64,000 bases of DNA. Origin: a virus. Both the position numbers and the translations under genes were made by a program. The notes beneath the pieces were generated by a model. That model had not been told where the DNA came from. It was given only the letters and a program-made list of their open reading frames with translations, and searched no databases. Positions 16,476 to 60,943 of this stretch are shown here, piece by piece. The DNA is taken from positions 1 to 64,000 of IMG/VR virus record IMGVR_UViG_3300027859_000009; one strand, written 5' to 3'. The stretch's first letter is position 1, and each line of letters opens with the position of its first letter.

Positions 16476-17585
16476 ATGGCAAAAAAGAAAGAATTTAATT
16501 TTAGCGATTTAAACGCAGAATTGGCAAACATTAACCCTTTAGGGTCTGTCATGTCAGAAAGCGATTTTAGCGAAGTTACAGAATATATTGATACTGGAAA
16601 TTATCACCTTAATGCATGTGTAAGTGGTTCACTTTTTGGTGGATGGCCAAACAGTCGAACTTGTGCATTAGCTGGACCTTCCGGAACAGGTAAAACTTTT
16701 CTTATTTTAAATAGTATTAAAAGGGCAATCGATATGGGTTACAGCATCGTCTTCTATGATTCTGAAGCTGCAGTTGATAGACAATTAATGAAAAAGTTTG
16801 GAATTGACGTGAGTAAAGTTAACTACCAACCGATTAATACTGTTCAGGCATTTAGACATTCAGTAACTACAATTACTACAAAGATGCAAGAAGTCAAAGC
16901 AGCAGGTGGAGAAGTTCCAAAATTAATGATTATTCTTGATAGTGCTGGTAACTTGGCAACTCAAAAAGAAATTAATGATGCAGTAAGTGGAAGTGAAAAA
17001 GCAGATATGACAAGAGCAAAAATTCTTAAATCAATTTTTAGAATTATAATGACTCCATTAGCAGATCTGAAAATTCCTTTCCTATTTACAAACCACACTT
17101 ATATGTCGCAAGGTTTTATTGCACAGCAAATTGCAGGTGGTGGAACTGGACCAGAATACGCAGCATCAATTGTTCTATTTTTAAATAAAGCACAATTAAA
17201 AGAAGGTACTGAAAAAACCGGAATTATTGTTACAGCAAAACCAAATAAAAACAGATTTGCAAAACCAACACCAATCAAATTCCATTTACACTTTACAAAA
17301 GGAATGAATAGATATGTAGGTTTAGAACAATATGCATCATGGGATATTTGTGGAGTAGCAAGAGGAACTATTGTAAAAGGTGAAAAAGTATTAAAAGAAA
17401 CCGCAAGAACTTGGGTTTGCAAACATCTAGACACAACGGTTTCAAATGCTGACTTTTTTACAGACAAGGTTTTTACCAAAGAAGTACTAGAAAAAATAAA
17501 CGAACATATCCAGCCAATATTCAACTATAACGATATTTCACACGATGTTGATGTTGATGAAATCTTAGAAGAGACAACAGAATGA
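16476..17585 (+). CDS. uvsX: RecA-like recombinase
   Basis: GPSGTGKT, YDSE, ILDS.GNL and GGG.G..Y motifs. Confidence 0.9.
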   Translation: MAKKKEFNFSDLNAELANINPLGSVMSESDFSEVTEYIDTGNYHLNACVSGSLFGGWPNSRTCALAGPSGTGKTFLILNSIKRAIDMGYSIVFYDSEAAVDRQLMKKFGIDVSKVNYQPINTVQAFRHSVTTITTKMQEVKAAGGEVPKLMIILDSAGNLATQKEINDAVSGSEKADMTRAKILKSIFRIIMTPLADLKIPFLFTNHTYMSQGFIAQQIAGGGTGPEYAASIVLFLNKAQLKEGTEKTGIIVTAKPNKNRFAKPTPIKFHLHFTKGMNRYVGLEQYASWDICGVARGTIVKGEKVLKETARTWVCKHLDTTVSNADFFTDKVFTKEVLEKINEHIQPIFNYNDISHDVDVDEILEETTE

Positions 17586-19632: not shown

Positions 19633-20748
19633 ATGATAAATCAAAAAGATTTAAAAAAACCAGTAAAAAGGGTTTGGGTCTTAGGTGATTTACATTTTGG
19701 AGTCAGATCAAATTCTTTAGAATGGTTAGAAATTCAAAAAGACTTTTTTGAAAACCTATTTATTCCTACACTTAAGAAACACTATAGACCTGGAGATGTT
19801 TTAGTGCAAGTAGGAGATACTTTTGATAATAGACAGAGTATTAATATAAGAGTTTTAAATTATGCTATAAACTTATTTGAAAGATTAGGTGAAATTCTTC
19901 CAGTTCATATCATTGTCGGTAACCATGATATATGGGCTAAAAAATCAAATAGTGTAACTTCAATCGATAGTCTTAAATGGATACCCAACGTTCAAGTTTA
20001 TACTGATCCGGAGATGTATGATTGGAATGATAGAAAAATATTACTTATGCCATGGAGAAGAGATTCTGCACATGAAGCAGAGACTCTTGCTGATAACCCA
20101 ACAAGTGAAATAGTATTTTGCCATTCAGAAGTCCGTGGAATTTATCTTAATTCTAAAGTTAAGAATCAACATGGAAATGAAAGTAATATTTATGATAAAT
20201 ATACAAGGGTTTATAGCGGACATATTCATTACAGACAAGAAAAAAATAAACTCTTAATGGTTGGGGTTCCATATCAACTTACCCGATCAGACATGAATAA
20301 TACTAAAGGATTTGATTTGGTAGATTTAGAAACAATGGAAGAGACTTTCTTTGAAAATAATATCAGTCCTAAATTTTTAAGGTACAATATTAAAATGCTA
20401 TATGATATGAGTCTTGGTAATTTTAAAGAGCAAATAGAAAATAATTTTATAGACCTTTACGTACCATCTGATGTTGCAACAACCTCAGCACTCTCAAATC
20501 TTATTAATAAAGTACAAAAAATCGGTAGAAAAATAGAACCAAATATTTATCAAGAAGATAATATGATTGATAAAGACCTCTACGATATCGATGAAATAGA
20601 AGAAATGCAAAAGAATTATAGTGTTTTAGGTTTATGTGAGAAGTTTATAGATTCATCTCACTATGATAAAAAACTGAAAAAAGAAATAAAACAAAAATTA
20701 GAAACTCTCTATAACTCCTGCGTAAACAACTATGATACAGACCAATGA
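19633..20748 (+). CDS. Recombination nuclease gp47 (Mre11/SbcD-like)
   Basis: GDLHFG, GDTFD, GNHD and SGHIH motifs. Confidence 0.92.
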   Translation: MINQKDLKKPVKRVWVLGDLHFGVRSNSLEWLEIQKDFFENLFIPTLKKHYRPGDVLVQVGDTFDNRQSINIRVLNYAINLFERLGEILPVHIIVGNHDIWAKKSNSVTSIDSLKWIPNVQVYTDPEMYDWNDRKILLMPWRRDSAHEAETLADNPTSEIVFCHSEVRGIYLNSKVKNQHGNESNIYDKYTRVYSGHIHYRQEKNKLLMVGVPYQLTRSDMNNTKGFDLVDLETMEETFFENNISPKFLRYNIKMLYDMSLGNFKEQIENNFIDLYVPSDVATTSALSNLINKVQKIGRKIEPNIYQEDNMIDKDLYDIDEIEEMQKNYSVLGLCEKFIDSSHYDKKLKKEIKQKLETLYNSCVNNYDTDQ

Positions 20749-22415
20749 GAATAAATAGTATAGAATTTAAAAACTTTGCAAGTTACGGAAATACTATTCA
20801 AAAGATAGAATTTGGTGATGAAGCTCAACTATATTTAACGTTGGGAAAGAATGGTCACGGAAAAACTACAATTGCTAATAGTATTATTTATGCCCTTTAT
20901 GGAAAGGTAGAAGGTGTAAAATTGGCAGATCTGCCAAATAGAATCAATAAAGAATTATGGGTAAAAATCAATTTAACATGTAAAGACATGCAGGTTGAGA
21001 TTGAAAGAGGTCTTATGCCCGGAAGATTTAAAGTCATGGTAAATGGTGTTGAATTTGACAAGGCTGGAAAAAGATCGGTACAAGAGTATTTGGAAGATGA
21101 GATATTCGGTATACCCTACCACGTCTTTAAAAACATTATTATTTTAAGTATTAATGATTTTAAGTCTTTTTTAACCATGTCATCAGGTGATAAGAAACAG
21201 ATAATCGATAAAATGTTCGGCTTCTCTGTCTTAAATGATATGTTTAGAGAGGTTAAAGAAGAGAGAAAACAGATTAAAATGGAAGTTGACTCTTATAATT
21301 CTGAACTGAATCAGATTATGGAATCAATTTCTTCTGTAAAATATAAACTTAATAATCTTTTAGAAGAGAGTTCTAAAAAAGATAAGGCAAAAATAGAAGA
21401 GTTAAAAGAAAATCTTTTAGGTTATGGAGAAGATATTCAAAAGCTGAATGAAGCTAAATCTTCTATTTCTACAAAACTGGAAGAGTATTCTGAAGTTACT
21501 ACAAAAACTTCAAATGAAGAAGGAGACCTTGTCAGAGAAAATAGATATATTGAAGATAAAATAGAGCTTTATAAAAAGGGTAAATGTCCAACTTGCGAAA
21601 CAAGTTTAACTTCAACCGAGCATTTGAATAGACTTGCTGATTGGAAAGTTGACAAGGAAACAAATGAATCTAAAATAGATGAACTTAAAACTTTGATAAA
21701 AGATACTGAAGAAAAAGTATCAGCCCTTAAAACTAAAAAGAAACAAGTAGAGACCAGATCGACAAGCATCAAATATTCTATTAAAGAAATAAAGGACGAG
21801 CTGATTAAAATAAAAGAGACTACAAAAAACGCTAGTCAATTTCAGCATCTTAAACAGATAATAAAAGACTTTGAAAAAACAGAAAAAGAAAAAAGTAAAA
21901 AGAAGGTTGTTGTAGAAAAAGAAGACGCCTTTATGACTATTCTTGAAGAAGTTTTAGGAGAAGATGGAGTTAAAAACTTGGCAGTAAAAACTATCCTACC
22001 TGGATTAAATGCAAATATTGCAATGATGGTTCAAACAATGCACCTTCCATTCCATATTAAATTTGACGAAAAGTTCAATTGTATAGTAAATCATTTAGGA
22101 GAAGAAATTAACCCGTTAACACTGTCAACAGGAGAGAGAAAGAAAGCTGACTTTATAGTTATAATAGCTATTATAAAAATATTAAAACTGAGATTCCCTC
22201 AATTAAATCTAATGTTCTTAGACGAACTATTAAGCTCTGTCGACCAAGACGGAGTCTACAATATTCTCAAAATATTAAATGAGGTTATAAAAGAGAATGG
22301 ATTAAATACATTTGTAATAAATCACACTGAATTACCACATGAAATTTTCGACCAAAAAATACAAATATATAGAGAAAACGGCTTCTCTAAATTTGAGATA
22401 GAGAAGATTGATTAA
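20745..22415 (+). CDS. Recombination ATPase gp46 (Rad50/SbcC-like)
   Basis: GKNGHGKTT, CPTC zinc hook, LSTGE and FLDE motifs. Confidence 0.93.
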   Translation: MRINSIEFKNFASYGNTIQKIEFGDEAQLYLTLGKNGHGKTTIANSIIYALYGKVEGVKLADLPNRINKELWVKINLTCKDMQVEIERGLMPGRFKVMVNGVEFDKAGKRSVQEYLEDEIFGIPYHVFKNIIILSINDFKSFLTMSSGDKKQIIDKMFGFSVLNDMFREVKEERKQIKMEVDSYNSELNQIMESISSVKYKLNNLLEESSKKDKAKIEELKENLLGYGEDIQKLNEAKSSISTKLEEYSEVTTKTSNEEGDLVRENRYIEDKIELYKKGKCPTCETSLTSTEHLNRLADWKVDKETNESKIDELKTLIKDTEEKVSALKTKKKQVETRSTSIKYSIKEIKDELIKIKETTKNASQFQHLKQIIKDFEKTEKEKSKKKVVVEKEDAFMTILEEVLGEDGVKNLAVKTILPGLNANIAMMVQTMHLPFHIKFDEKFNCIVNHLGEEINPLTLSTGERKKADFIVIIAIIKILKLRFPQLNLMFLDELLSSVDQDGVYNILKILNEVIKENGLNTFVINHTELPHEIFDQKIQIYRENGFSKFEIEKID

Positions 22416-34722: not shown

Positions 34723-34748
34723 TTATTTATATATTTGTTAAAAATAAT

Positions 34749-34798
34749 TGCCCTCAGATTTTTTTATGTCGTTTATAATGATTATATTTATACTATAT
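34749..34798 (+). promoter_or_regulatory. Early-promoter repeat, copy 2
   Basis: CAGATTTTTTTATGTCGTTTA-N6-TTATATTTATACT. Confidence 0.8.
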
Positions 34799-34817
34799 TA
34801 ATCAAAACGAATAAATT

Positions 34818-35384
34818 ATGGAATTTTTACACTACTTAGGAAAAGGATTAGGATGGTTACTAATGTACGGTGCCATTGCGGCATCAATAATATACAGTGT
34901 ATTGCTACTATTCGGTTTAATAATATATTCTACTAGATATGTTATTTGGAAATTAATCTTAAGAAAAGAAACTTCAACTGAGTTTCTTGATAGACTTGCT
35001 ATAGAAAAAGGATATACGTCATATCAGGAGATGCGTGATATATGGAAGAACCAGTTCGGCTCACATTTTGAGTGGTCTTACTACGCAGCATCTGAACAGA
35101 ACCTTGAACCCTATCTTGAAGAAGAAGACAGGACTGATCGAGAATATAGCAAAATGTATGACAATTTGTATGATATTTATAGAAAACACAACGAAACTTA
35201 TAATAATCCATGGAAGAAAAGATGGTATATCTTAACTGATTACAAATTTACAGCTAATAAAGAATGGAAAGGCGAGGCTTTTGTAGTTGCAGCAACCACG
35301 TTCATTATTTCAATATCAGCATATATGATAGCAGCACTCACATATTATATGGAGCATGGACAAAAGATGCCTCTACTATTTTAA
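34818..35384 (+). CDS. Early membrane protein (TM segments at both ends)
   Basis: Hydrophobic segments at both termini. Confidence 0.65.
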   Translation: MEFLHYLGKGLGWLLMYGAIAASIIYSVLLLFGLIIYSTRYVIWKLILRKETSTEFLDRLAIEKGYTSYQEMRDIWKNQFGSHFEWSYYAASEQNLEPYLEEEDRTDREYSKMYDNLYDIYRKHNETYNNPWKKRWYILTDYKFTANKEWKGEAFVVAATTFIISISAYMIAALTYYMEHGQKMPLLF

Positions 35385-54348: not shown

Positions 54349-54450
54349 ATGGACTTACCTACTAAAATGGTCACATTAATAGCAGTTCTTGCATTTTTCA
54401 TGATAGGCTTTGCCTTAAACCACATTGACAAAAAGTGGCCAAATAAATAA
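54349..54450 (+). CDS. 33-aa single-TM micro-ORF
   Basis: Read manually (MDLPTKMVTLIAVLAFFMIGFAL...). Confidence 0.4.
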   Translation: MDLPTKMVTLIAVLAFFMIGFALNHIDKKWPNK

Positions 54451-54468
54451 AACTTTTTTAAAAAAAAG

Positions 54469-54518
54469 TCACTCCAGATTTTTTTATGTCGTTTATTATT
54501 GTTATATTTATACTATAA
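54469..54518 (+). promoter_or_regulatory. Early-promoter repeat, copy 4
   Basis: Same 50-bp element. Confidence 0.8.
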
Positions 54519-54534
54519 TTAATTAATCAAAACA

Positions 54535-54819
54535 ATGACAAAAATGACAAAAGTTAAAGTAGGAGACAAAGTTAGAAGTTTCGACTTCGATAGTCACGAA
54601 GTAAAAGGAAAAGATGCTTGTTACGTTGAAGGCGTAGTAGAAAGCATAGAAGGTCACCCGATGAGCGGTGACGGAGAATACGCTAAATTCAAAATCACTC
54701 TTAAAATCTTCGGTGGAGAAGAGAGAACAGAAGCTGTTGGAGAATATAACTGGGTTCCTCAAAATGGCCAAGAAACTTGGCTCGGAAAATTAACTAATCA
54801 CTTAACAATAATAGCATAA
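54535..54819 (+). CDS. Hypothetical early protein (SH3-like beta pattern)
   Basis: KVGDKVRSFDF...YVEGVV. Confidence 0.65.
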   Translation: MTKMTKVKVGDKVRSFDFDSHEVKGKDACYVEGVVESIEGHPMSGDGEYAKFKITLKIFGGEERTEAVGEYNWVPQNGQETWLGKLTNHLTIIA

Positions 54820-54820
54820 T

Positions 54821-55033
54821 ATGTCAAACTCAAAGAAAAAATCATTTCCAGTATTTACAATAATATTTCTAATATTTTTAACTTTAAAGCTTGCTGAAAT
54901 TGGACAAGTAGCAGCTTGGTCATGGTGGTGGGTAACCGCACCTTTATGGCTACCTCTTATAGTAGGATTATTCGTAATAGGATTAACAATCACAGTAGGT
55001 GTAATTATAGCCTACATAAATAGTAAATTATAA
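54821..55033 (+). CDS. Small membrane protein (WSWWWV.APLW family)
   Basis: LTLKL....WSWWWVTAPLW motif. Confidence 0.7.
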   Translation: MSNSKKKSFPVFTIIFLIFLTLKLAEIGQVAAWSWWWVTAPLWLPLIVGLFVIGLTITVGVIIAYINSKL

Positions 55034-55053: not shown

Positions 55054-55515
55054 ATGCCATGTTCAGATGCAGGAGCCTACGATTACTTAAACGACCACAG
55101 GACTCAAAGACAGTTAAATGAAAACGAAGCTCTTAGAAAAGAAGTTTTAAGACTTGAAAAACGATTAGAAGAATCTAAAACTGAAAAAGAATTAAAGCTT
55201 GAAGCAGAACTTCAAACTGCAAAAATAGCAGCTAAAGATTTCGCACAAAGATTAAATAAGACAACAGAGCTTTTATGTAATGCAACCTTTATATTATTCG
55301 AAGAAGGATATTTGCACGGAAATTCAAAACTTCAAGAGTGGTTTAACAATCATACCGAAGAAGACGCTAAAAGAATGAAAACCGATTTAGATAAAATAAT
55401 GAAACGTAAAAACGGTACTATTCAAAGCCTTATTAAATGGTACGAAACCCTAGATGCAAAAGAGCAATGGGTATTTGAAACTCATAAAAATTTCAAAGGA
55501 TATAAATTAAACTAA
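55054..55515 (+). CDS. Hypothetical protein
   Basis: MPC.D start; coiled coil. Confidence 0.65.
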   Translation: MPCSDAGAYDYLNDHRTQRQLNENEALRKEVLRLEKRLEESKTEKELKLEAELQTAKIAAKDFAQRLNKTTELLCNATFILFEEGYLHGNSKLQEWFNNHTEEDAKRMKTDLDKIMKRKNGTIQSLIKWYETLDAKEQWVFETHKNFKGYKLN

Positions 55516-55516
55516 A

Positions 55517-55717
55517 ATGGAAATAACATTAAACAGAAAACACACAATAGACCAGATAGAATGGGTAACAACTGAATTCGAATGGCCTGAAGTAATGAGA
55601 AAAGAATGGGTTTCTTTTTTAAGAAGTAAAAAAGTTCATGAATTAAAAGATTTAAAAAGTTTACCTATGGAAGAATTAAACGAAATATACGGAGAAGCAT
55701 ATTCTCTATTAACATAA
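55517..55717 (+). CDS. Hypothetical protein
   Basis: ORF track. Confidence 0.55.
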   Translation: MEITLNRKHTIDQIEWVTTEFEWPEVMRKEWVSFLRSKKVHELKDLKSLPMEELNEIYGEAYSLLT

Positions 55718-55730
55718 AAACAAAATAAAA

Positions 55731-55925
55731 ATGAAAAATATTTTAGAATACAAATTAAGTAGAATGGTACAACTGGTCGCTTTATTTAGTCTTCCAATAA
55801 TTATATACGGCGAATGGATCGAACCTTACAGCCTTGAAAACAACATTTGGATAGGAATTAATGGAGCAGTATGGTTACACTTTTTAGACCGAGCACGAAA
55901 TGGTCTACCATCTAAAAAAGTTTAA
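55731..55925 (+). CDS. Small membrane protein
   Basis: ORF track; hydrophobic. Confidence 0.5.
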   Translation: MKNILEYKLSRMVQLVALFSLPIIIYGEWIEPYSLENNIWIGINGAVWLHFLDRARNGLPSKKV

Positions 55926-55932
55926 AAATAAA

Positions 55933-55982
55933 TCACTCCAGATTTTTTTATGTCGTTTATTTTTATTATATTTAACTATAAT
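55933..55982 (+). promoter_or_regulatory. Early-promoter repeat, copy 5
   Basis: Same element upstream of the ligase. Confidence 0.8.
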
Positions 55983-56005
55983 TAATTAATCAAAACAATA
56001 ACAAT

Positions 56006-57310
56006 ATGCTAGATAGACTACAAGAATTCGTAGAGAGGAGTAACTCAACAAACTCAAACACTGATAAATTAGATGTCTTAAGAGACTACTCGACAGATCA
56101 GGAGGTACTAGGAGCTCTTAGGTATACTTATTCACCATTTAAACAATATCATGTTACTTCAAAAAATCTTAAAAAGAGAAGTGACCTGGTTAGTCCAATC
56201 GGAAACCAATACGGTAGTATATTTACCCTATTAGATACGTTAAATGATAGAATAATCACAGGACATGATGCTATTGCAGCCGTAAACAGATTTATTCTCG
56301 AGAACAGACAATATGAAGAACTCATCTATAATATTATAGATCGAAATCTTAAGACCCGTTCTACAGCTTCAATGATTAATAAAGTTGTACCCGGTCTCAT
56401 ACCAGGATTTGATGTTGCATTAGCCGCAACCTATGATGAGAAAACAAAAAAGAAAGTCGATCTTGATACTGATGATTGGTACCTTTCTAGAAAATTGGAC
56501 GGAGTCAGATGTTTAGCATTCTTCGACAACTTCGGAACTGTTACTTTTAAAAGTAGAAGTGGCAAACCATTTGATACACTTGGAAAAGTTGCTAAAGAAC
56601 TTGAAGAACTGAAACTTTACAACGTCGTGATGGATGGAGAGATTTGCATTGTTGATGAAAATGGTGATGAAGATTTTCAATCAATCATCAAAGAAATCAA
56701 AAGAAAAGACCACACTATCAAAAACCCATTATTTCAAATTTTTGATATGATATCGTTAGAAGACTTTGAGAATAAGACTTCAAGGGAAAAATTAAGTGAA
56801 AGACTTGATAATCTTGAAATGGTCTTCCATCACTTCGACCCTAAATACACCAAAGTACTTGAACAAGACCTCTTAACCAGTTGGGATATGTTTGAGTCTA
56901 AGATGGACCTAGCCGTTCAGAGTGGTTGGGAAGGTCTAATGCTACGAAAAGACGAGAAGTACAAAGGTAAAAGAAGTACAGATATCCTGAAGGTAAAGAA
57001 ATTCTATGATGAAGAATATATCGTCGTAGACGTAGAGAACTCCCCCAATCGTGTAATTGTTGATGGAGTCGAAGTAGAAGAGATGATGCTAAAGAACGTC
57101 ATCATAGAACACAAAGGCAATAGAGTACAGGTTGGAAGTGGTTTTACAATTGATGAAAGAAGAAACTATTTTGAAAACCCTAATAAAATATTAGGAAAGA
57201 CCATAACAGTGCAGTACTTTGAAGAGACTACAAATCAAAATGGCACCCATTCATTGAGGTTCCCAGTGATTAAAGCAGTCTACCAAAACGGAAGAGTTGA
57301 TTATGTATAA
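56006..57310 (+). CDS. ATP-dependent DNA ligase
   Basis: KLDGVR, DGEI, FDM, EGLMLR, KVK, VGSGF and SLRFP motifs. Confidence 0.95.
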   Translation: MLDRLQEFVERSNSTNSNTDKLDVLRDYSTDQEVLGALRYTYSPFKQYHVTSKNLKKRSDLVSPIGNQYGSIFTLLDTLNDRIITGHDAIAAVNRFILENRQYEELIYNIIDRNLKTRSTASMINKVVPGLIPGFDVALAATYDEKTKKKVDLDTDDWYLSRKLDGVRCLAFFDNFGTVTFKSRSGKPFDTLGKVAKELEELKLYNVVMDGEICIVDENGDEDFQSIIKEIKRKDHTIKNPLFQIFDMISLEDFENKTSREKLSERLDNLEMVFHHFDPKYTKVLEQDLLTSWDMFESKMDLAVQSGWEGLMLRKDEKYKGKRSTDILKVKKFYDEEYIVVDVENSPNRVIVDGVEVEEMMLKNVIIEHKGNRVQVGSGFTIDERRNYFENPNKILGKTITVQYFEETTNQNGTHSLRFPVIKAVYQNGRVDYV

Positions 57311-57322
57311 ACCAAAACTGAG

Positions 57323-57490
57323 ATGAGTAAAGAAGAAAGATTTGAGTTATGGGTAAATAAATTCAGAAATGAATTAACAGAAGGACAAATAGAAGTTCTA
57401 CAAGATAGTTTATCTAATTTCGAATGGCCAGATGAATATAAAGAATTGATACAAGATAGAATAGAAGAACTTAAACCAAAACAAAGATGA
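57323..57490 (+). CDS. Micro-ORF, 55 aa (MSKEERFELW...LKPKQR)
   Basis: Read manually. Confidence 0.6.
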   Translation: MSKEERFELWVNKFRNELTEGQIEVLQDSLSNFEWPDEYKELIQDRIEELKPKQR

Positions 57491-57666
57491 GTCCAAATAA
57501 AGATGAAAAGAAATACTGGAATAGAATTTATGGTTTTTTAGGTAATAGTATTTATGAAATCTATGATACTGAAACGGCAGAAAAGAGAAAACTAAAAGGA
57601 CAGAAAGTTTTTAAAGAGTTATTAGAACAGAGATTAAACCGAAAAAAAGATGAAAGTAATAATTAA
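57487..57666 (+). CDS. Micro-ORF, 59 aa (MSPNKDEKKYW...LNRKKDESNN)
   Basis: Read manually. Confidence 0.6.
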   Translation: MSPNKDEKKYWNRIYGFLGNSIYEIYDTETAEKRKLKGQKVFKELLEQRLNRKKDESNN

Positions 57667-57826
57667 ATACAATCCAGAATATAAGACTTCAGTAAAAGTA
57701 CATGAAGTTAAAGAAGAAGAAGATGCTTGGGATCTAATAGATGAAGCCAAGCAAAGTTTTGGTCAAGGAATTATATTGACTGACCAGGAGTTTGCGCAAT
57801 TAATAAACCAAAACAAAGATGAGTAA
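57650..57826 (+). CDS. Micro-ORF, 58 aa (MKVIIKYNP...INQNKDE)
   Basis: Read manually. Confidence 0.6.
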   Translation: MKVIIKYNPEYKTSVKVHEVKEEEDAWDLIDEAKQSFGQGIILTDQEFAQLINQNKDE

Positions 57827-57923
57827 AATTTGGAAATACATTTTTAAAAAGAGATATAATTTTTTAGATGTAGTCATGGTTGCTATTATTAGTCAAATCA
57901 TATATGAATACATTATAAAGTAA
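57819..57923 (+). CDS. Micro-ORF, 34 aa, single TM (MSKIWKYIF...)
   Basis: Read manually. Confidence 0.5.
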   Translation: MSKIWKYIFKKRYNFLDVVMVAIISQIIYEYIIK

Positions 57924-57935
57924 ACCAAATTAAAG

Positions 57936-58475
57936 ATGATTTGTAAAAAATGTAACGAAATTATTCCACAGGCTAGAGTAGATTTAGGTTACTCTGTTTG
58001 TGTTGAATGCTCAGAAGTAGAAAAGTATGGATGTGTTGATGTTGTACAGCATAAGACTGGAAATACAATCGAAGTACTTTCTAGAAAAGATGCAGAACAG
58101 GCAAACAAATTAACTCAAAGGACTGGGTTTGGAACTCTAAGAAGTTTAAGATCTGGCACCACTAAAAAAGAAAAACATGTTGGTGGTCAATGTTGTTCAA
58201 ATGCTTTTGTAGGAAACGAAAAAAGTTTTGAAGAAGTTGGAAAAGACTGTATGTTATGGGTAGAACTTGAAGATTGGAATAAAGTAACTTATACTCTTCA
58301 AAAAGCTCTAGATAAAAGAGAAATTTCAAAAAGTCAATGGCATCAACTAACCCGAATATTTAAAGAGTTCATGCCGAAAGAAGAAAACAAAATACAAAAA
58401 ACGATTATAAAATCAGTAGATGAAGAAATCAACCATGTATTTAAAAATTGGCGAAATTCAAAAATTTATAAATAA
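57936..58475 (+). CDS. Protein with N-terminal DksA/TraR-type C4 zinc finger
   Basis: CKKC...IP.AR......CVEC. Confidence 0.65.
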   Translation: MICKKCNEIIPQARVDLGYSVCVECSEVEKYGCVDVVQHKTGNTIEVLSRKDAEQANKLTQRTGFGTLRSLRSGTTKKEKHVGGQCCSNAFVGNEKSFEEVGKDCMLWVELEDWNKVTYTLQKALDKREISKSQWHQLTRIFKEFMPKEENKIQKTIIKSVDEEINHVFKNWRNSKIYK

Positions 58476-58488
58476 AAGTTAAAATAAA

Positions 58489-58538
58489 TCACTCCAGATT
58501 TTTTTATGTCGTTTATTATGATTATATTTATACTATAA
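58489..58538 (+). promoter_or_regulatory. Early-promoter repeat, copy 6
   Basis: Same element upstream of the Prs-like gene. Confidence 0.8.
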
Positions 58539-58550
58539 CAAATTAAAGAT

Positions 58551-59414
58551 ATGCTACAACTTAACTTATATCCAAATCAGAAAAAAGGAATCAACTACGA
58601 AATTTATAAATTTCCAGACGGTCAACAATCTATTAAAATAGATGAATTTGCATTTCAACATGATCGATTTGAGGTAGAAATTGTAAGTCCTTTTACTTCA
58701 TTCCTAGATTTAGAATTAATAATCTGTGCAAATCAAGCTCTTAAAGAAATGGGAGTTCAAAAAGTCAGTTTATATACACCATATTTCTTAGGTGGTAGAA
58801 GTGATAGAAAATTCGAAGAAGGAACTTCAAACTATTTAAAAACAGTAGTTTGCCCAATTATTAACAGTCAAAACTTTCATAGAGTTACTGTTTTAGACCC
58901 ACATTCAGATGTAATAGAAGCGTGTCTTAATAACTTTAAAGGAATCGATACTGTTGATTTCGCTGAACAAGTTTTAAAAGATGTAAAAGCTCAATATTAT
59001 CCGGTACAAGATTTAGAATATCCTATCGTGCTTGTATCTCCAGATGCAGGTGCTCTCAAAAAAGTATTTAAAATTCAGAAAAGTACAGGTATTAAAAACC
59101 TAGTTATTGGTTCTAAGAATAGAGATGTCAAAGGACAAATAACACATACTTCTATTTCAGGACTGAAAGACATAAATATCTCAAACGCAACCTATATTAT
59201 CTTCGATGATATATGCGATGGAGGTAGAACTTTCCTTGAACTTGCTAAAGTTATAAAAAAGGAAAAAGAAAATGCTAGAATAGTTTTAGCAGTAACACAT
59301 GGTCTTTTTACTAAAGGTCTTCCGATCGAACATGTTGACCACGTATACACCACAGACTCTATTGTTCGTGAATTTGAATCAAAGAGTCTTACTATTATAA
59401 ATTGTAACAAATAA
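58551..59414 (+). CDS. Prs-like pyrophosphokinase (probable NARP1 Adps)
   Basis: FPDGQ, PY..G.R.DR, DPHS, SPDAGA and DDICDGGRTF motifs. Confidence 0.85.
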   Translation: MLQLNLYPNQKKGINYEIYKFPDGQQSIKIDEFAFQHDRFEVEIVSPFTSFLDLELIICANQALKEMGVQKVSLYTPYFLGGRSDRKFEEGTSNYLKTVVCPIINSQNFHRVTVLDPHSDVIEACLNNFKGIDTVDFAEQVLKDVKAQYYPVQDLEYPIVLVSPDAGALKKVFKIQKSTGIKNLVIGSKNRDVKGQITHTSISGLKDINISNATYIIFDDICDGGRTFLELAKVIKKEKENARIVLAVTHGLFTKGLPIEHVDHVYTTDSIVREFESKSLTIINCNK

Positions 59415-59425
59415 AAATCAATAAT

Positions 59426-60943
59426 ATGAAAATGAACAGCTTATTTTTAACAGATGGTTATAAAACTGGACACCATCAACAATATCCAAAAGGAACAAAC
59501 ACAGTTTATTCTAACTGGACACCAAGAGGAAACAAGTATGCACCGAGAGGTTGTGATAAAGTCGTTTCATTTGGACAACAAATGGTAATTCAATGGTTAG
59601 TAGACCATTTTAATGATAACTTCTTTAGTCAACCTAAAGAAAAAGTTTGCGGTCAAATGAAAGCTGAATTGTCAATGTACTTAAATACAGACTATGATGT
59701 AACTCATTTCGAAGAACTTCACGATTTAGGTTATCTTCCTATTGAAGTTAAATCTTTAGAAGAAGGAATCGAAGTTCCTTTAAGAGTTCCAATGTTGACA
59801 GTACAAAATACTGGAAACTTTGGATGGTTAACTAACTTTTTAGAGACTATTTTATCTAATATGTTATGGCAACCAATGACTTCAGCGACAATCGCTTTGT
59901 TATACAAGCGAATTTTAACTGAAGGTGCTTTAAAAACAGACAAAGATGCAATTGGTTTTGTAGACTTCCAGGGACATGATTTTTCTATGAGAGGAATGGG
60001 AGGATTTATGAGTACTATCTTAAGTGGACTAGGACATGCTGCCGCATTTAGTGGAAGTGATTCTTTGCCAGTTATTGCAGCAGCCAGAAACTACTACAAC
60101 GAATCTGGTTTCGTTGTCGGTTCAGTAAATGCCACGGAGCATTCAGTAATGTGTGCTGGAACTAAAGGAGATGAATTAGGAACCTTTAGAAGATTAATGG
60201 ATACCTATCCAACAGGAATATTAAGTATTGTATCTGATACCTGGGACTTATGGACAGTAGTCACTGATTATTTACCAGCATTAAAAGACGAAATTATGAG
60301 TCGAGATGGTAAAATAGTTATTCGACCTGACAGCGGAGACCCGGTAGATATTCTTTGTGGATATAACTCTCTTACGACAGACGAGTTCAAGGGCAAGGCA
60401 ATCACTGTGGGTGATGCACATCCTGCTAATAAAGGTTTAATTGAACTTTTATGGGAAACCTTTGGAGGAACTACAAATTCACAGGGCTACAAAGTCTTAG
60501 ACCAACATATTGGAGCAATTTATGGAGATAGTATTACTCCAGATCGAGCAAGACAAATTATTGAAAGACTTGCTAGAAAAGGATTCGCTTCTACAAACGT
60601 AGTTCTAGGTATTGGAAGTTACACTTATCAATATAACACTAGAGATACATTTGGTTTCGCAATGAAAGCAACCTATGTTGAAGTTGAAGGAAAAGGAAGA
60701 GAAATCTTTAAAGACCCTATCACAGATGATGGAACCAAAAAATCTGCAAAAGGTTTATTACATGTAAGTAAGAACCCAGAAACTGGAGAACTAGAACTAA
60801 GAGATATGGTTTCTAGAAAAACAGAAGCAGAAGGAGAATTAAAAACTATTTTCAAAGACGGTAAATTCTACAATAGAACTACCTTAACTGAAGTTAGAAA
60901 TAAAATCTCTAACTTGATTACAGACCCTAAATTGGTTAAATAA
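59426..60943 (+). CDS. NAMPT-like transferase (probable NARP1 Namat)
   Basis: TDGYK..H, HDFSMRG, ATEHS, SDT, RPDSG, YGDSI and K.PITD.G.KKSAKG motifs. Confidence 0.88.
   Translation: MKMNSLFLTDGYKTGHHQQYPKGTNTVYSNWTPRGNKYAPRGCDKVVSFGQQMVIQWLVDHFNDNFFSQPKEKVCGQMKAELSMYLNTDYDVTHFEELHDLGYLPIEVKSLEEGIEVPLRVPMLTVQNTGNFGWLTNFLETILSNMLWQPMTSATIALLYKRILTEGALKTDKDAIGFVDFQGHDFSMRGMGGFMSTILSGLGHAAAFSGSDSLPVIAAARNYYNESGFVVGSVNATEHSVMCAGTKGDELGTFRRLMDTYPTGILSIVSDTWDLWTVVTDYLPALKDEIMSRDGKIVIRPDSGDPVDILCGYNSLTTDEFKGKAITVGDAHPANKGLIELLWETFGGTTNSQGYKVLDQHIGAIYGDSITPDRARQIIERLARKGFASTNVVLGIGSYTYQYNTRDTFGFAMKATYVEVEGKGREIFKDPITDDGTKKSAKGLLHVSKNPETGELELRDMVSRKTEAEGELKTIFKDGKFYNRTTLTEVRNKISNLITDPKLVK

Follow-up and report, generated by a model that had tools for sequence, protein, structure and literature searches.

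A short repeated joint linking unrelated mini-genes in arrays of uncultured marine phages

The mini-gene array and its joint

The window analyzed here comprises 64,000 nucleotides, the first 64 kb of the 80.5-kb viral record IMGVR_UViG_3300027859_000009 in IMG/VR. At positions 57308-57938 it holds an array of four mini-genes, preceded by a ligase gene and followed by the gene for a 179-aa protein, and at each border between these genes stands a copy of the same short repeat, which we call the joint. The basic repeat is an 18-mer ending in the ATG of the next open reading frame (ORF); the extended joint of about 24 nt also includes the AGTAAA that follows the ATG. A first-pass annotation had placed five copies at 57308, 57472, 57635, 57804 and 57921, at spacings of 164, 163, 169 and 117 nt, each ending in the ATG of an ORF (55, 59, 58, 34 and 179 aa, respectively), and all of this was confirmed. 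The parts of the array are listed below (offsets are counted along the joint).

56006-57310, + strand: ATP-dependent DNA ligase, the gene before the array (Pfam DNA_ligase_A_M 8e-18, DNA_ligase_OB_2 1e-10); it stops at the TAA of joint 1
57308-57331, + strand: joint 1, 18-mer with 2 mismatches; stops at offsets 0, 16 and 20
57323-57490, + strand: mini-gene ORF1, 55 aa, ending ...KPKQR at the TGA of the ATGA in joint 2
57472-57495, + strand: joint 2, exact 18-mer
57487-57666, + strand: mini-gene ORF2, 59 aa, reading through joint 3 in the third frame (...NRKKDESNN)
57635-57658, + strand: joint 3, 2 mismatches to the 18-mer
57650-57826, + strand: mini-gene ORF3, 58 aa, ending ...NQNKDE at the TAA at offset 20 of joint 4, 2 nt past the ATG of that joint
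57804-57827, + strand: joint 4, exact 18-mer, with all three stops
57819-57923, + strand: mini-gene ORF4, 34 aa, hydrophobic; its stop is the TAA of joint 5
57921-57944, + strand: joint 5, 2 mismatches to the 18-mer
57936-58475, + strand: 179-aa protein with an N-terminal CxxC...CxxC, the zinc-finger gene of the first-pass annotation; last gene of the unit and conserved in relatives

From TAAACC to the ATG the distance is exactly 15 nt in all five copies. When up to three mismatches were allowed, 7 matches were obtained in the window against 0.39 expected from dinucleotide shuffles, none of which reached 7. In the 80.5-kb record, with its roughly 120 gene starts, the joint is present at only 7, and the rest have varied A/T-rich leaders.

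The genes that share this border do not share ancestry that could be detected. No pair among ORF1-4 and the ORFs of a second, smaller array (described below) scored above shuffles as protein or DNA (z < 2 in all pairs), in agreement with the first-pass annotation, which had called the ORFs unrelated. No Pfam or PHROG family was matched by the mini-genes. Protein-seeded searches of metagenomes nevertheless returned 30 homologues of ORF2 (48-74 aa, 62-82% identical, apart from the window's own entry) and 14 of ORF3 (76-93% identical), the latter sharing the C-terminal read-through of the joint. Most of the ORF2 and ORF3 homologues end in ...NQNKD(E), followed by tails that differ by context. A search for related loci found none for ORF2 and, for ORF3, one distant relative on a 112-kb contig (L172, 65% identity). 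There (L172:1440-1720) the upstream leader is different and the downstream joint is reduced to its 3' half (GAAACAAAGATGA); a gene can therefore persist after the TAAACC half has gone. The 179-aa protein, also without Pfam or PHROG match, gave only a weak atlas lead (zf-dskA_traR, score 0.89).

The consensus joint contains stop codons in all three frames: a TAA at offset 0, a TGA at offset 16 that overlaps the start codon as ATGA, and a TAA, TGA or TAG at offset 20. Since the joint is read in different frames up to its stops, the upstream proteins end in recurring tails of the ...KPKQR or ...NQNKDE type, as seen for ORF1 and ORF3 in the list above. The use of three frames had been recognized in the first-pass annotation, together with its corollary that the DNA rather than the peptide is conserved, and both hold for these unrelated genes. 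Among the matches listed from viral contigs (318 copies), 69 have the stop of the upstream ORF at offset 0, 76 have it at offset 16 and 103 at offset 20. The stops are also present irrespective of which frame needs them, in 84, 96 and 64% of the copies, respectively. Stop-to-start distances are thus +12, -4 and -8 nt, the last being an 8-nt overlap. In the same set an A directly follows the ATG in 96-97% of copies, with GTAAA mostly coming next, and the fixed C and G positions of the joint are conserved in 86-95% of copies ahead of unrelated genes.

The ligase, the four mini-genes and the gene for the 179-aa protein are packed without gaps between two copies of another element, a promoter-like intergenic repeat of about 48 nt. 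It occurs in five copies in the window, with 77% mean column identity and a long invariant core (alignment A1). The two copies that flank the unit are:

55915-56008, + strand: promoter-like repeat copy (alignment A1), putative; probable start of the array's transcription unit
58462-58553, + strand: promoter-like repeat copy (alignment A1), putative; probable start of the pyrophosphokinase-like/NAMPT unit

No terminator-like site was found in 55500-59000. Because of the gapless packing, the flanking promoter-like repeats and the lack of such a site inside, the main array looks like the interior of one operon.

As for its origin, the record (31% G+C) has every long ORF on the + strand, and its genes start behind A/T-rich leaders without Shine-Dalgarno sequence. 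It encodes a tail sheath, a portal, a prohead protease, a major head protein and a large terminase. The nearest cultured terminases are those of Tenacibaculum phage PTm1 (33%), Sphingomonas phage PAU (31%), Flavobacterium phage MaF61 (29%) and Prevotella Lak phages (29%), and the sequencing runs that contain window DNA are sea-water metagenomes. Judged by its structural genes, its nearest terminases and these runs, the record is part of the genome of a large marine myovirus (a giant phage) that has not been cultured, with a completeness of about 28% by CheckV. Its host is likely from the Bacteroidota.

Spread of the joint and gene content in relatives

The joint is widespread among viruses. 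An exact scan of IMG/VR viral stretches with the 18-mer identified at least 119 stretches, and these hold at least 400 copies when up to three mismatches are allowed, with both strands of one stretch never used. Three or more copies are present in at least 53 stretches. Among the matches listed, the ORF led by the joint has a median length of 61 aa and is shorter than 100 aa in 88% of cases, the spacing of joints has a median of 204 nt with a wide range, and as many as 25 copies are packed into 6.5 kb of one stretch. In five whole records (61-380 kb) there are 14-28 copies each (up to two mismatches), all but one on one strand per record and grouped in one or two arrays; a control with the reversed pattern gave 0. 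The cargo is diverse, as the 324 joint-led ORFs among the matches listed fall into 219 families, of which 160 are singletons. The carriers are diverse too. Compared with the major capsid protein of the window phage, theirs are 37-47%, 27% and 26% identical, and other carriers have a different replication module beside the array, with family A DNA polymerase, primase-helicase and SF2 helicase.

One of the whole records, of 380 kb (G002), has arrays at 89.7-92.3 kb and 375-380 kb (L036 and L030), about 285 kb apart. The cassettes that they share are 97-100% identical, and the cassettes between them are different. This record may be an over-assembled circular or terminally redundant genome in which two population variants of one array were captured.

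In cells the joint is rare. Across 596 Gb of bacterial and archaeal genomes the exact 18-mer was found in 49 stretches, which is chance level. Nearly all of these matches are single and open no ORF, and the few multi-copy matches lie on short contigs of metagenome-assembled genomes that resemble mis-binned phage DNA. A start signal of host type, or one general to the Bacteroidota, was therefore rejected. Phages PTm1, MaF61 and PAU and a 462-kb uncultured phage had joint matches at control level only, and a 41-nt query detected no arrays among 50,697 GenBank phage records. Rare in cells and carried by few gene starts, the joint is neither the host's nor the phage's general start signal. It belongs to mini-gene arrays.

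Gene content at the joint varies between relatives. Three of them (L120-L122), near-identical to each other, have flanks 89-94% identical to the window and a 179-aa protein 86% identical to that described here. Their similarity to the window stops at 57329, inside joint 1, and resumes at 57936, the ATG of the gene for the 179-aa protein. The replacement block contains four ORFs, two for 28-aa membrane proteins and one each for proteins of 143 and 50 aa, linked by the same joint or its variants. The two adjacent 28-aa hydrophobic mini-genes (L120:9183-9371) look paralogous and would represent a tandem duplication between joints. In another relative (L034), with a ligase 88% identical, similarity stops at 57330 and at least nine other cassettes follow. 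Arrays also lie behind the ligases of relatives, directly in L120 and L034 and about 1.3 kb further on in L037. Contigs of relatives from other sea-water runs cover 56744-57304 and the DNA from 57936 onward.

Single cassettes are found again elsewhere, from joint to joint. The ORF1 cassette (57308-57513) recurs in the 380-kb contig (L036) with 86.6% DNA identity and a protein 90.6% identical, the ORF4 cassette (57804-57947) recurs in L075 with 74.5% identity, and the cassette of a 43-aa gene of the second array (1520-1694) recurs in L042 and L087. The cleanest difference was observed between L096 and L059, where exactly one extra cassette of about 150 nt lies between two joints in L096 and the flanking shared cassettes are 98.6 and 94.5% identical. 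Over all fetched stretches, the segment across the joint is unrelated in 474 of 594 comparisons, and 17% of the ends of similarity lie no more than 15 nt from a joint, versus 1.5% of random positions. Within arrays only, the corresponding values are 42 and 6.6%. The comparison of these contigs shows whole-gene swapping at the joint in relatives. Small genes are gained, lost and replaced as wholes at this border, as the first-pass annotation had proposed when it read the repeat as a recombination joint between cassettes. Homologous cassettes with interiors 66% identical and those with interiors 95% identical alike have joints that are 86-90% identical, as would be expected if joints are held near consensus and exchanged independently of their cargo.

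Deletions or circles had also been sought in contig junctions that connect 57337 to 57633, 57797 or 57804, and 57492 to 57798-57804. The sides of these junctions are only 21-30 nt long. They were not taken as evidence of deletion, because sides this short represent other cassettes sharing the joint.

Candidate roles of the joint and comparison with known systems

We consider it probable that the joint is a portable stop/restart connector within an operon that doubles as recombination homology. The anatomy of the joint, its spread across phages, its use in three frames and the breakpoints located at it are observed. From them we infer restart of translation at the joint, and homologous recombination as the cause of the breakpoints. 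In the messenger RNA, the joint would end the upstream mini-gene in whichever frame it arrives and would offer the next ATG in an A-rich leader without Shine-Dalgarno sequence, so that each mini-gene could be translated by restart or by direct initiation near the upstream stop. In the DNA, being common to all cassettes and to many phages, it would provide short homology for crossovers that delete, duplicate, insert or replace whole genes without creating fusions. Such crossovers, whether inside one array or between phages infecting the same cell, might rely on recombination proteins of the phage itself; the record has genes for a RecA/UvsX-like protein (16476-17585) and for an SbcC-like nuclease (20745-22415). 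Since the stops cover all frames and the start travels along, a crossover inside the joint gives two intact genes, and this outcome of any crossover would account for the presence of the joint in so many unrelated genes and phages.

The translational part of this reading has parallels in experimental work. Ribosomes of Flavobacterium johnsoniae ignore Shine-Dalgarno sequences, and A at -3, -6, -12 and -13 was measured there as a positive determinant of initiation (PMC6847099). The joint has A at all four positions, and AGGAG is absent from its sequence. Termination-reinitiation coupling is almost lost at about 20 nt in experiments with E. coli and Haloferax (PMC10666635), and all three stop-to-start distances of the joint lie within the range of less than about 20 nt set by that study. 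Together, the distances of -4, -8 and +12 nt and the pattern of A are compatible with a signal for restart or initiation, without being proof of one. Ordinary coupled gene pairs, overlapping or closely spaced (Huber et al., 2019, PMC6728339; Huber et al., 2023, PMC10666635), resemble the joint in their ATGA overlaps or short distances and in being co-directional within one operon. They differ in sharing only the overlap, whereas the joint is a conserved 24-nt module that serves all three frames. Pairing of the joint with 16S ribosomal RNA, as in restart of the calicivirus type, was tried as a further candidate and rejected (-9.9 versus a shuffled mean of -11.3 kcal/mol, with the 16S of Dokdonia, which may not be that of the host).

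Several observations weigh against the connector. More than 100 other genes in this record are served by other A/T-rich leaders, and the messenger RNA is not predicted to be specially open at the joint (unpaired probability of 0.64 versus 0.60 at other starts, p = 0.29). Since other leaders serve and openness is no greater, translation alone does not explain the fixed C and G positions. The right border of the block replaced in L120 lacks a full joint, and the clustering of similarity ends at a shared repeat is partly by construction. Breakpoints at gene borders could also arise if illegitimate recombination occurs at random and intact genes are then selected.

Among known phage elements, the closest are the promoter-early stem-loops (PeSLs) in the hyperplastic regions of T4-type phages (Arbiol et al., 2010, PMC2839356; Comeau et al., 2014, PMC4122927). 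Like the joint, PeSLs are short conserved repeats that separate small orphan accessory genes. They coincide with the borders of insertions, deletions and replacements when related phages are compared, and they are interpreted as homology through which the phage's own recombination shuffles modules. However, a PeSL is a transcription cassette with a sigma-70-type promoter and a terminator hairpin, and recombination between PeSL copies is associated with excised mini-circles. The joint has neither promoter nor hairpin. It lies inside an operon, locked to the ATG, with stops in three frames in 18-24 nt, and it is common letter for letter to very distant phages. The start-associated sequences (SAS/ESAS) of Cluster K mycobacteriophages (Pope et al., 2011, PMC3203893) offer a second parallel. 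They too are asymmetric short repeats a few nucleotides before starts, in one orientation and ahead of different gene families; SAS precede a subset of non-structural genes, are absent from the host genome and often contain the upstream stop. Unlike the joint, SAS are GC-rich, have a Shine-Dalgarno core, are scattered rather than arrayed and are confined to one phage cluster, and cassette swapping is not a reported feature of SAS sites (PMC3203893). The carriers of the joint are instead uncultured marine phages, with terminases nearest to those of Tenacibaculum and Flavobacterium phages. A text search of the literature did not find the 13-nt core of the joint in the papers covered, and a keyword search for such joints returned nothing relevant. 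Compared with these phage elements, the joint stands out by its three-frame design and by its letter-for-letter spread across distant phages.

The main rival holds that the joint is the operator of a sequence-specific regulator that controls the mini-genes jointly, with recombination as a by-product. The regulator would be a DNA-binding protein or, like RegA of phage T4, a translational repressor or activator that binds RNA, encoded by phage or host. We regard it as unlikely, although the best of the alternatives. It would account for the fixed C and G positions that are kept ahead of unrelated genes, for the restriction of the joint to one or two arrays per genome where most genes do not use it, and for its failure to exceed chance in cell genomes. 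T4 RegA binds around start codons. Cluster K start-associated sequences were read in the same way by their authors (PMC3203893). But a regulator leaves the stops in three frames unexplained, very distant types of carrier phage would all need the factor, or would need one from the host, and no candidate for it was found: no family of at least 90 aa lies beside arrays in more than 7 of 54 loci. The regulator and the stop/restart connector are compatible and not exclusive. In a further reading, to which we give a still lower chance, the joint would be a recognized signal, bound by a candidate factor of phage or host that both co-regulates the mini-genes and drives exchange between unrelated phages of one host group. 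The binding candidate would then be an RNA-binding protein that promotes or represses restart, or an annealing or recombination protein. If true, the factor-bound joint would be a phage gene-cassette system with its own standard connector.

The remaining alternatives are far less probable. The first-pass annotation had compared the array to an integron or a CRISPR array without an evident dedicated enzyme. The architecture supports the comparison, as this is a row of unrelated, mostly promoterless small cassettes with a common promoter and a repeated border, whose content varies between close relatives. What is missing is an attC-like inverted repeat and a recurrent neighbouring enzyme, and the intervals that would correspond to CRISPR spacers are ORFs with conserved protein homologues rather than non-coding spacers. 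Both comparisons therefore fail at their defining features. The lack of an evident dedicated enzyme was borne out: no tyrosine or serine recombinase, by match to Phage_integrase (PF00589) or Resolvase (PF00239), was found in the 80.5-kb record, nor was any recombinase, of the IntI type or other, found among the recurrent neighbours of arrays. For site-specific recombination at the joint by an enzyme encoded elsewhere in the genome there is a slim chance. The recurrence of cassettes in unrelated contexts and the one-cassette difference between L096 and L059 are in its favour, and the enzyme could lie outside a record that is about 28% complete. On inspection, however, the joint is A-rich and asymmetric, without inverted repeat, hairpin or self-complementarity, and its fixed register to the ATG and the stops, which makes the border part of a translation signal, points to a role in translation. 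A phage-specific promoter that gives each mini-gene its own transcript with a very short leader is slightly more doubtful still. The joint is repeated on one strand upstream of genes in an accessory region, and PeSLs, the closest known shuffling element, are promoters (PMC2839356). Against a promoter stand the exact ATG register, the conservation that extends into the coding part, the upstream ORFs that overlap the joint in three frames, copies as close as 117 nt and the separate promoter-like repeat that brackets the unit. Moreover, a scan of 55500-59000 for sigma-70-type promoter consensus gave 15 sites versus 15.6 expected, none tied to joints, and, as weak evidence, a contig from an RNA library spans the ligase, the joint and a relative's cassette. 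Least credible of all is that the array is the relic of tandem duplication of one gene of about 165 nt, whose coding parts diverged while the border was kept. The three near-equal spacings (164, 163 and 169 nt) and the paralogous look of the two 28-aa mini-genes in L120 would agree with it. This is hard to reconcile with ORFs that show no similarity above shuffles in either array, with ORF1-4 each having their own conserved family elsewhere, with the same joint standing ahead of at least 219 families in many phages, or with spacings that vary widely elsewhere.

Tiny accessory genes make up most of the phage genes of unknown function, and their movement between phages is poorly understood. In this regard, one short sequence that links at least 219 unrelated mini-gene families, from giant myoviruses to polymerase-A phages, is informative, and the stops-then-start design of the proposed connector would provide a simple and testable rule for modular gene exchange. 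The joint may also be used as a marker to locate arrays of accessory genes in viromes, and such arrays are promising places to search for host-takeover or counter-defence genes. In addition, where host ribosomes ignore Shine-Dalgarno sequences, the joint suggests itself as a compact connector of genes.

The second array, the promoter-like repeat and neighbouring genes

A second small array, overlooked in the first-pass annotation, lies at 1532-1700:

1345-1566, + strand: 73-aa ORF before the second array, reading through joint B1 (...NQNKEDE...)
1532-1552, + strand: joint B1, a variant with an extra AAG (3 nt) ahead of the ATG
1550-1681, + strand: mini-gene, 43 aa; proteins 84-90% identical in L042 and L087
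1678-1700, + strand: joint B2, a degenerate copy
1698-1832, + strand: mini-gene, 44 aa, without family match

The joint variant with the AAG insert is also present in distant records (G001, G002, G004 and G005), perhaps through recurrent slippage or through shared descent.

Further copies of the promoter-like repeat are found at 770-860, 34730-34820 and 54440-54537. It stands before several units, and it also matches several places in L120-L122. Directly behind one copy, a 94-aa gene (54535-54819) is replaced in L120-L122, which show a similarity gap at 54551-54830. The repeat of about 48 nt may therefore be a more PeSL-like shuffling point. Just upstream of another copy, at 607-770, are genes for tRNA-Leu (anticodon taa) and tRNA-Arg (anticodon tct). 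The unit after the main array (58551-60943) contains a ribose-phosphate pyrophosphokinase-like gene, with every Pfam match below cut-off, and a nicotinamide/nicotinate phosphoribosyltransferase gene (NAPRTase 2e-37, NAMPT_N 8e-8). By their predicted products, these two genes are a putative NAD salvage pair.

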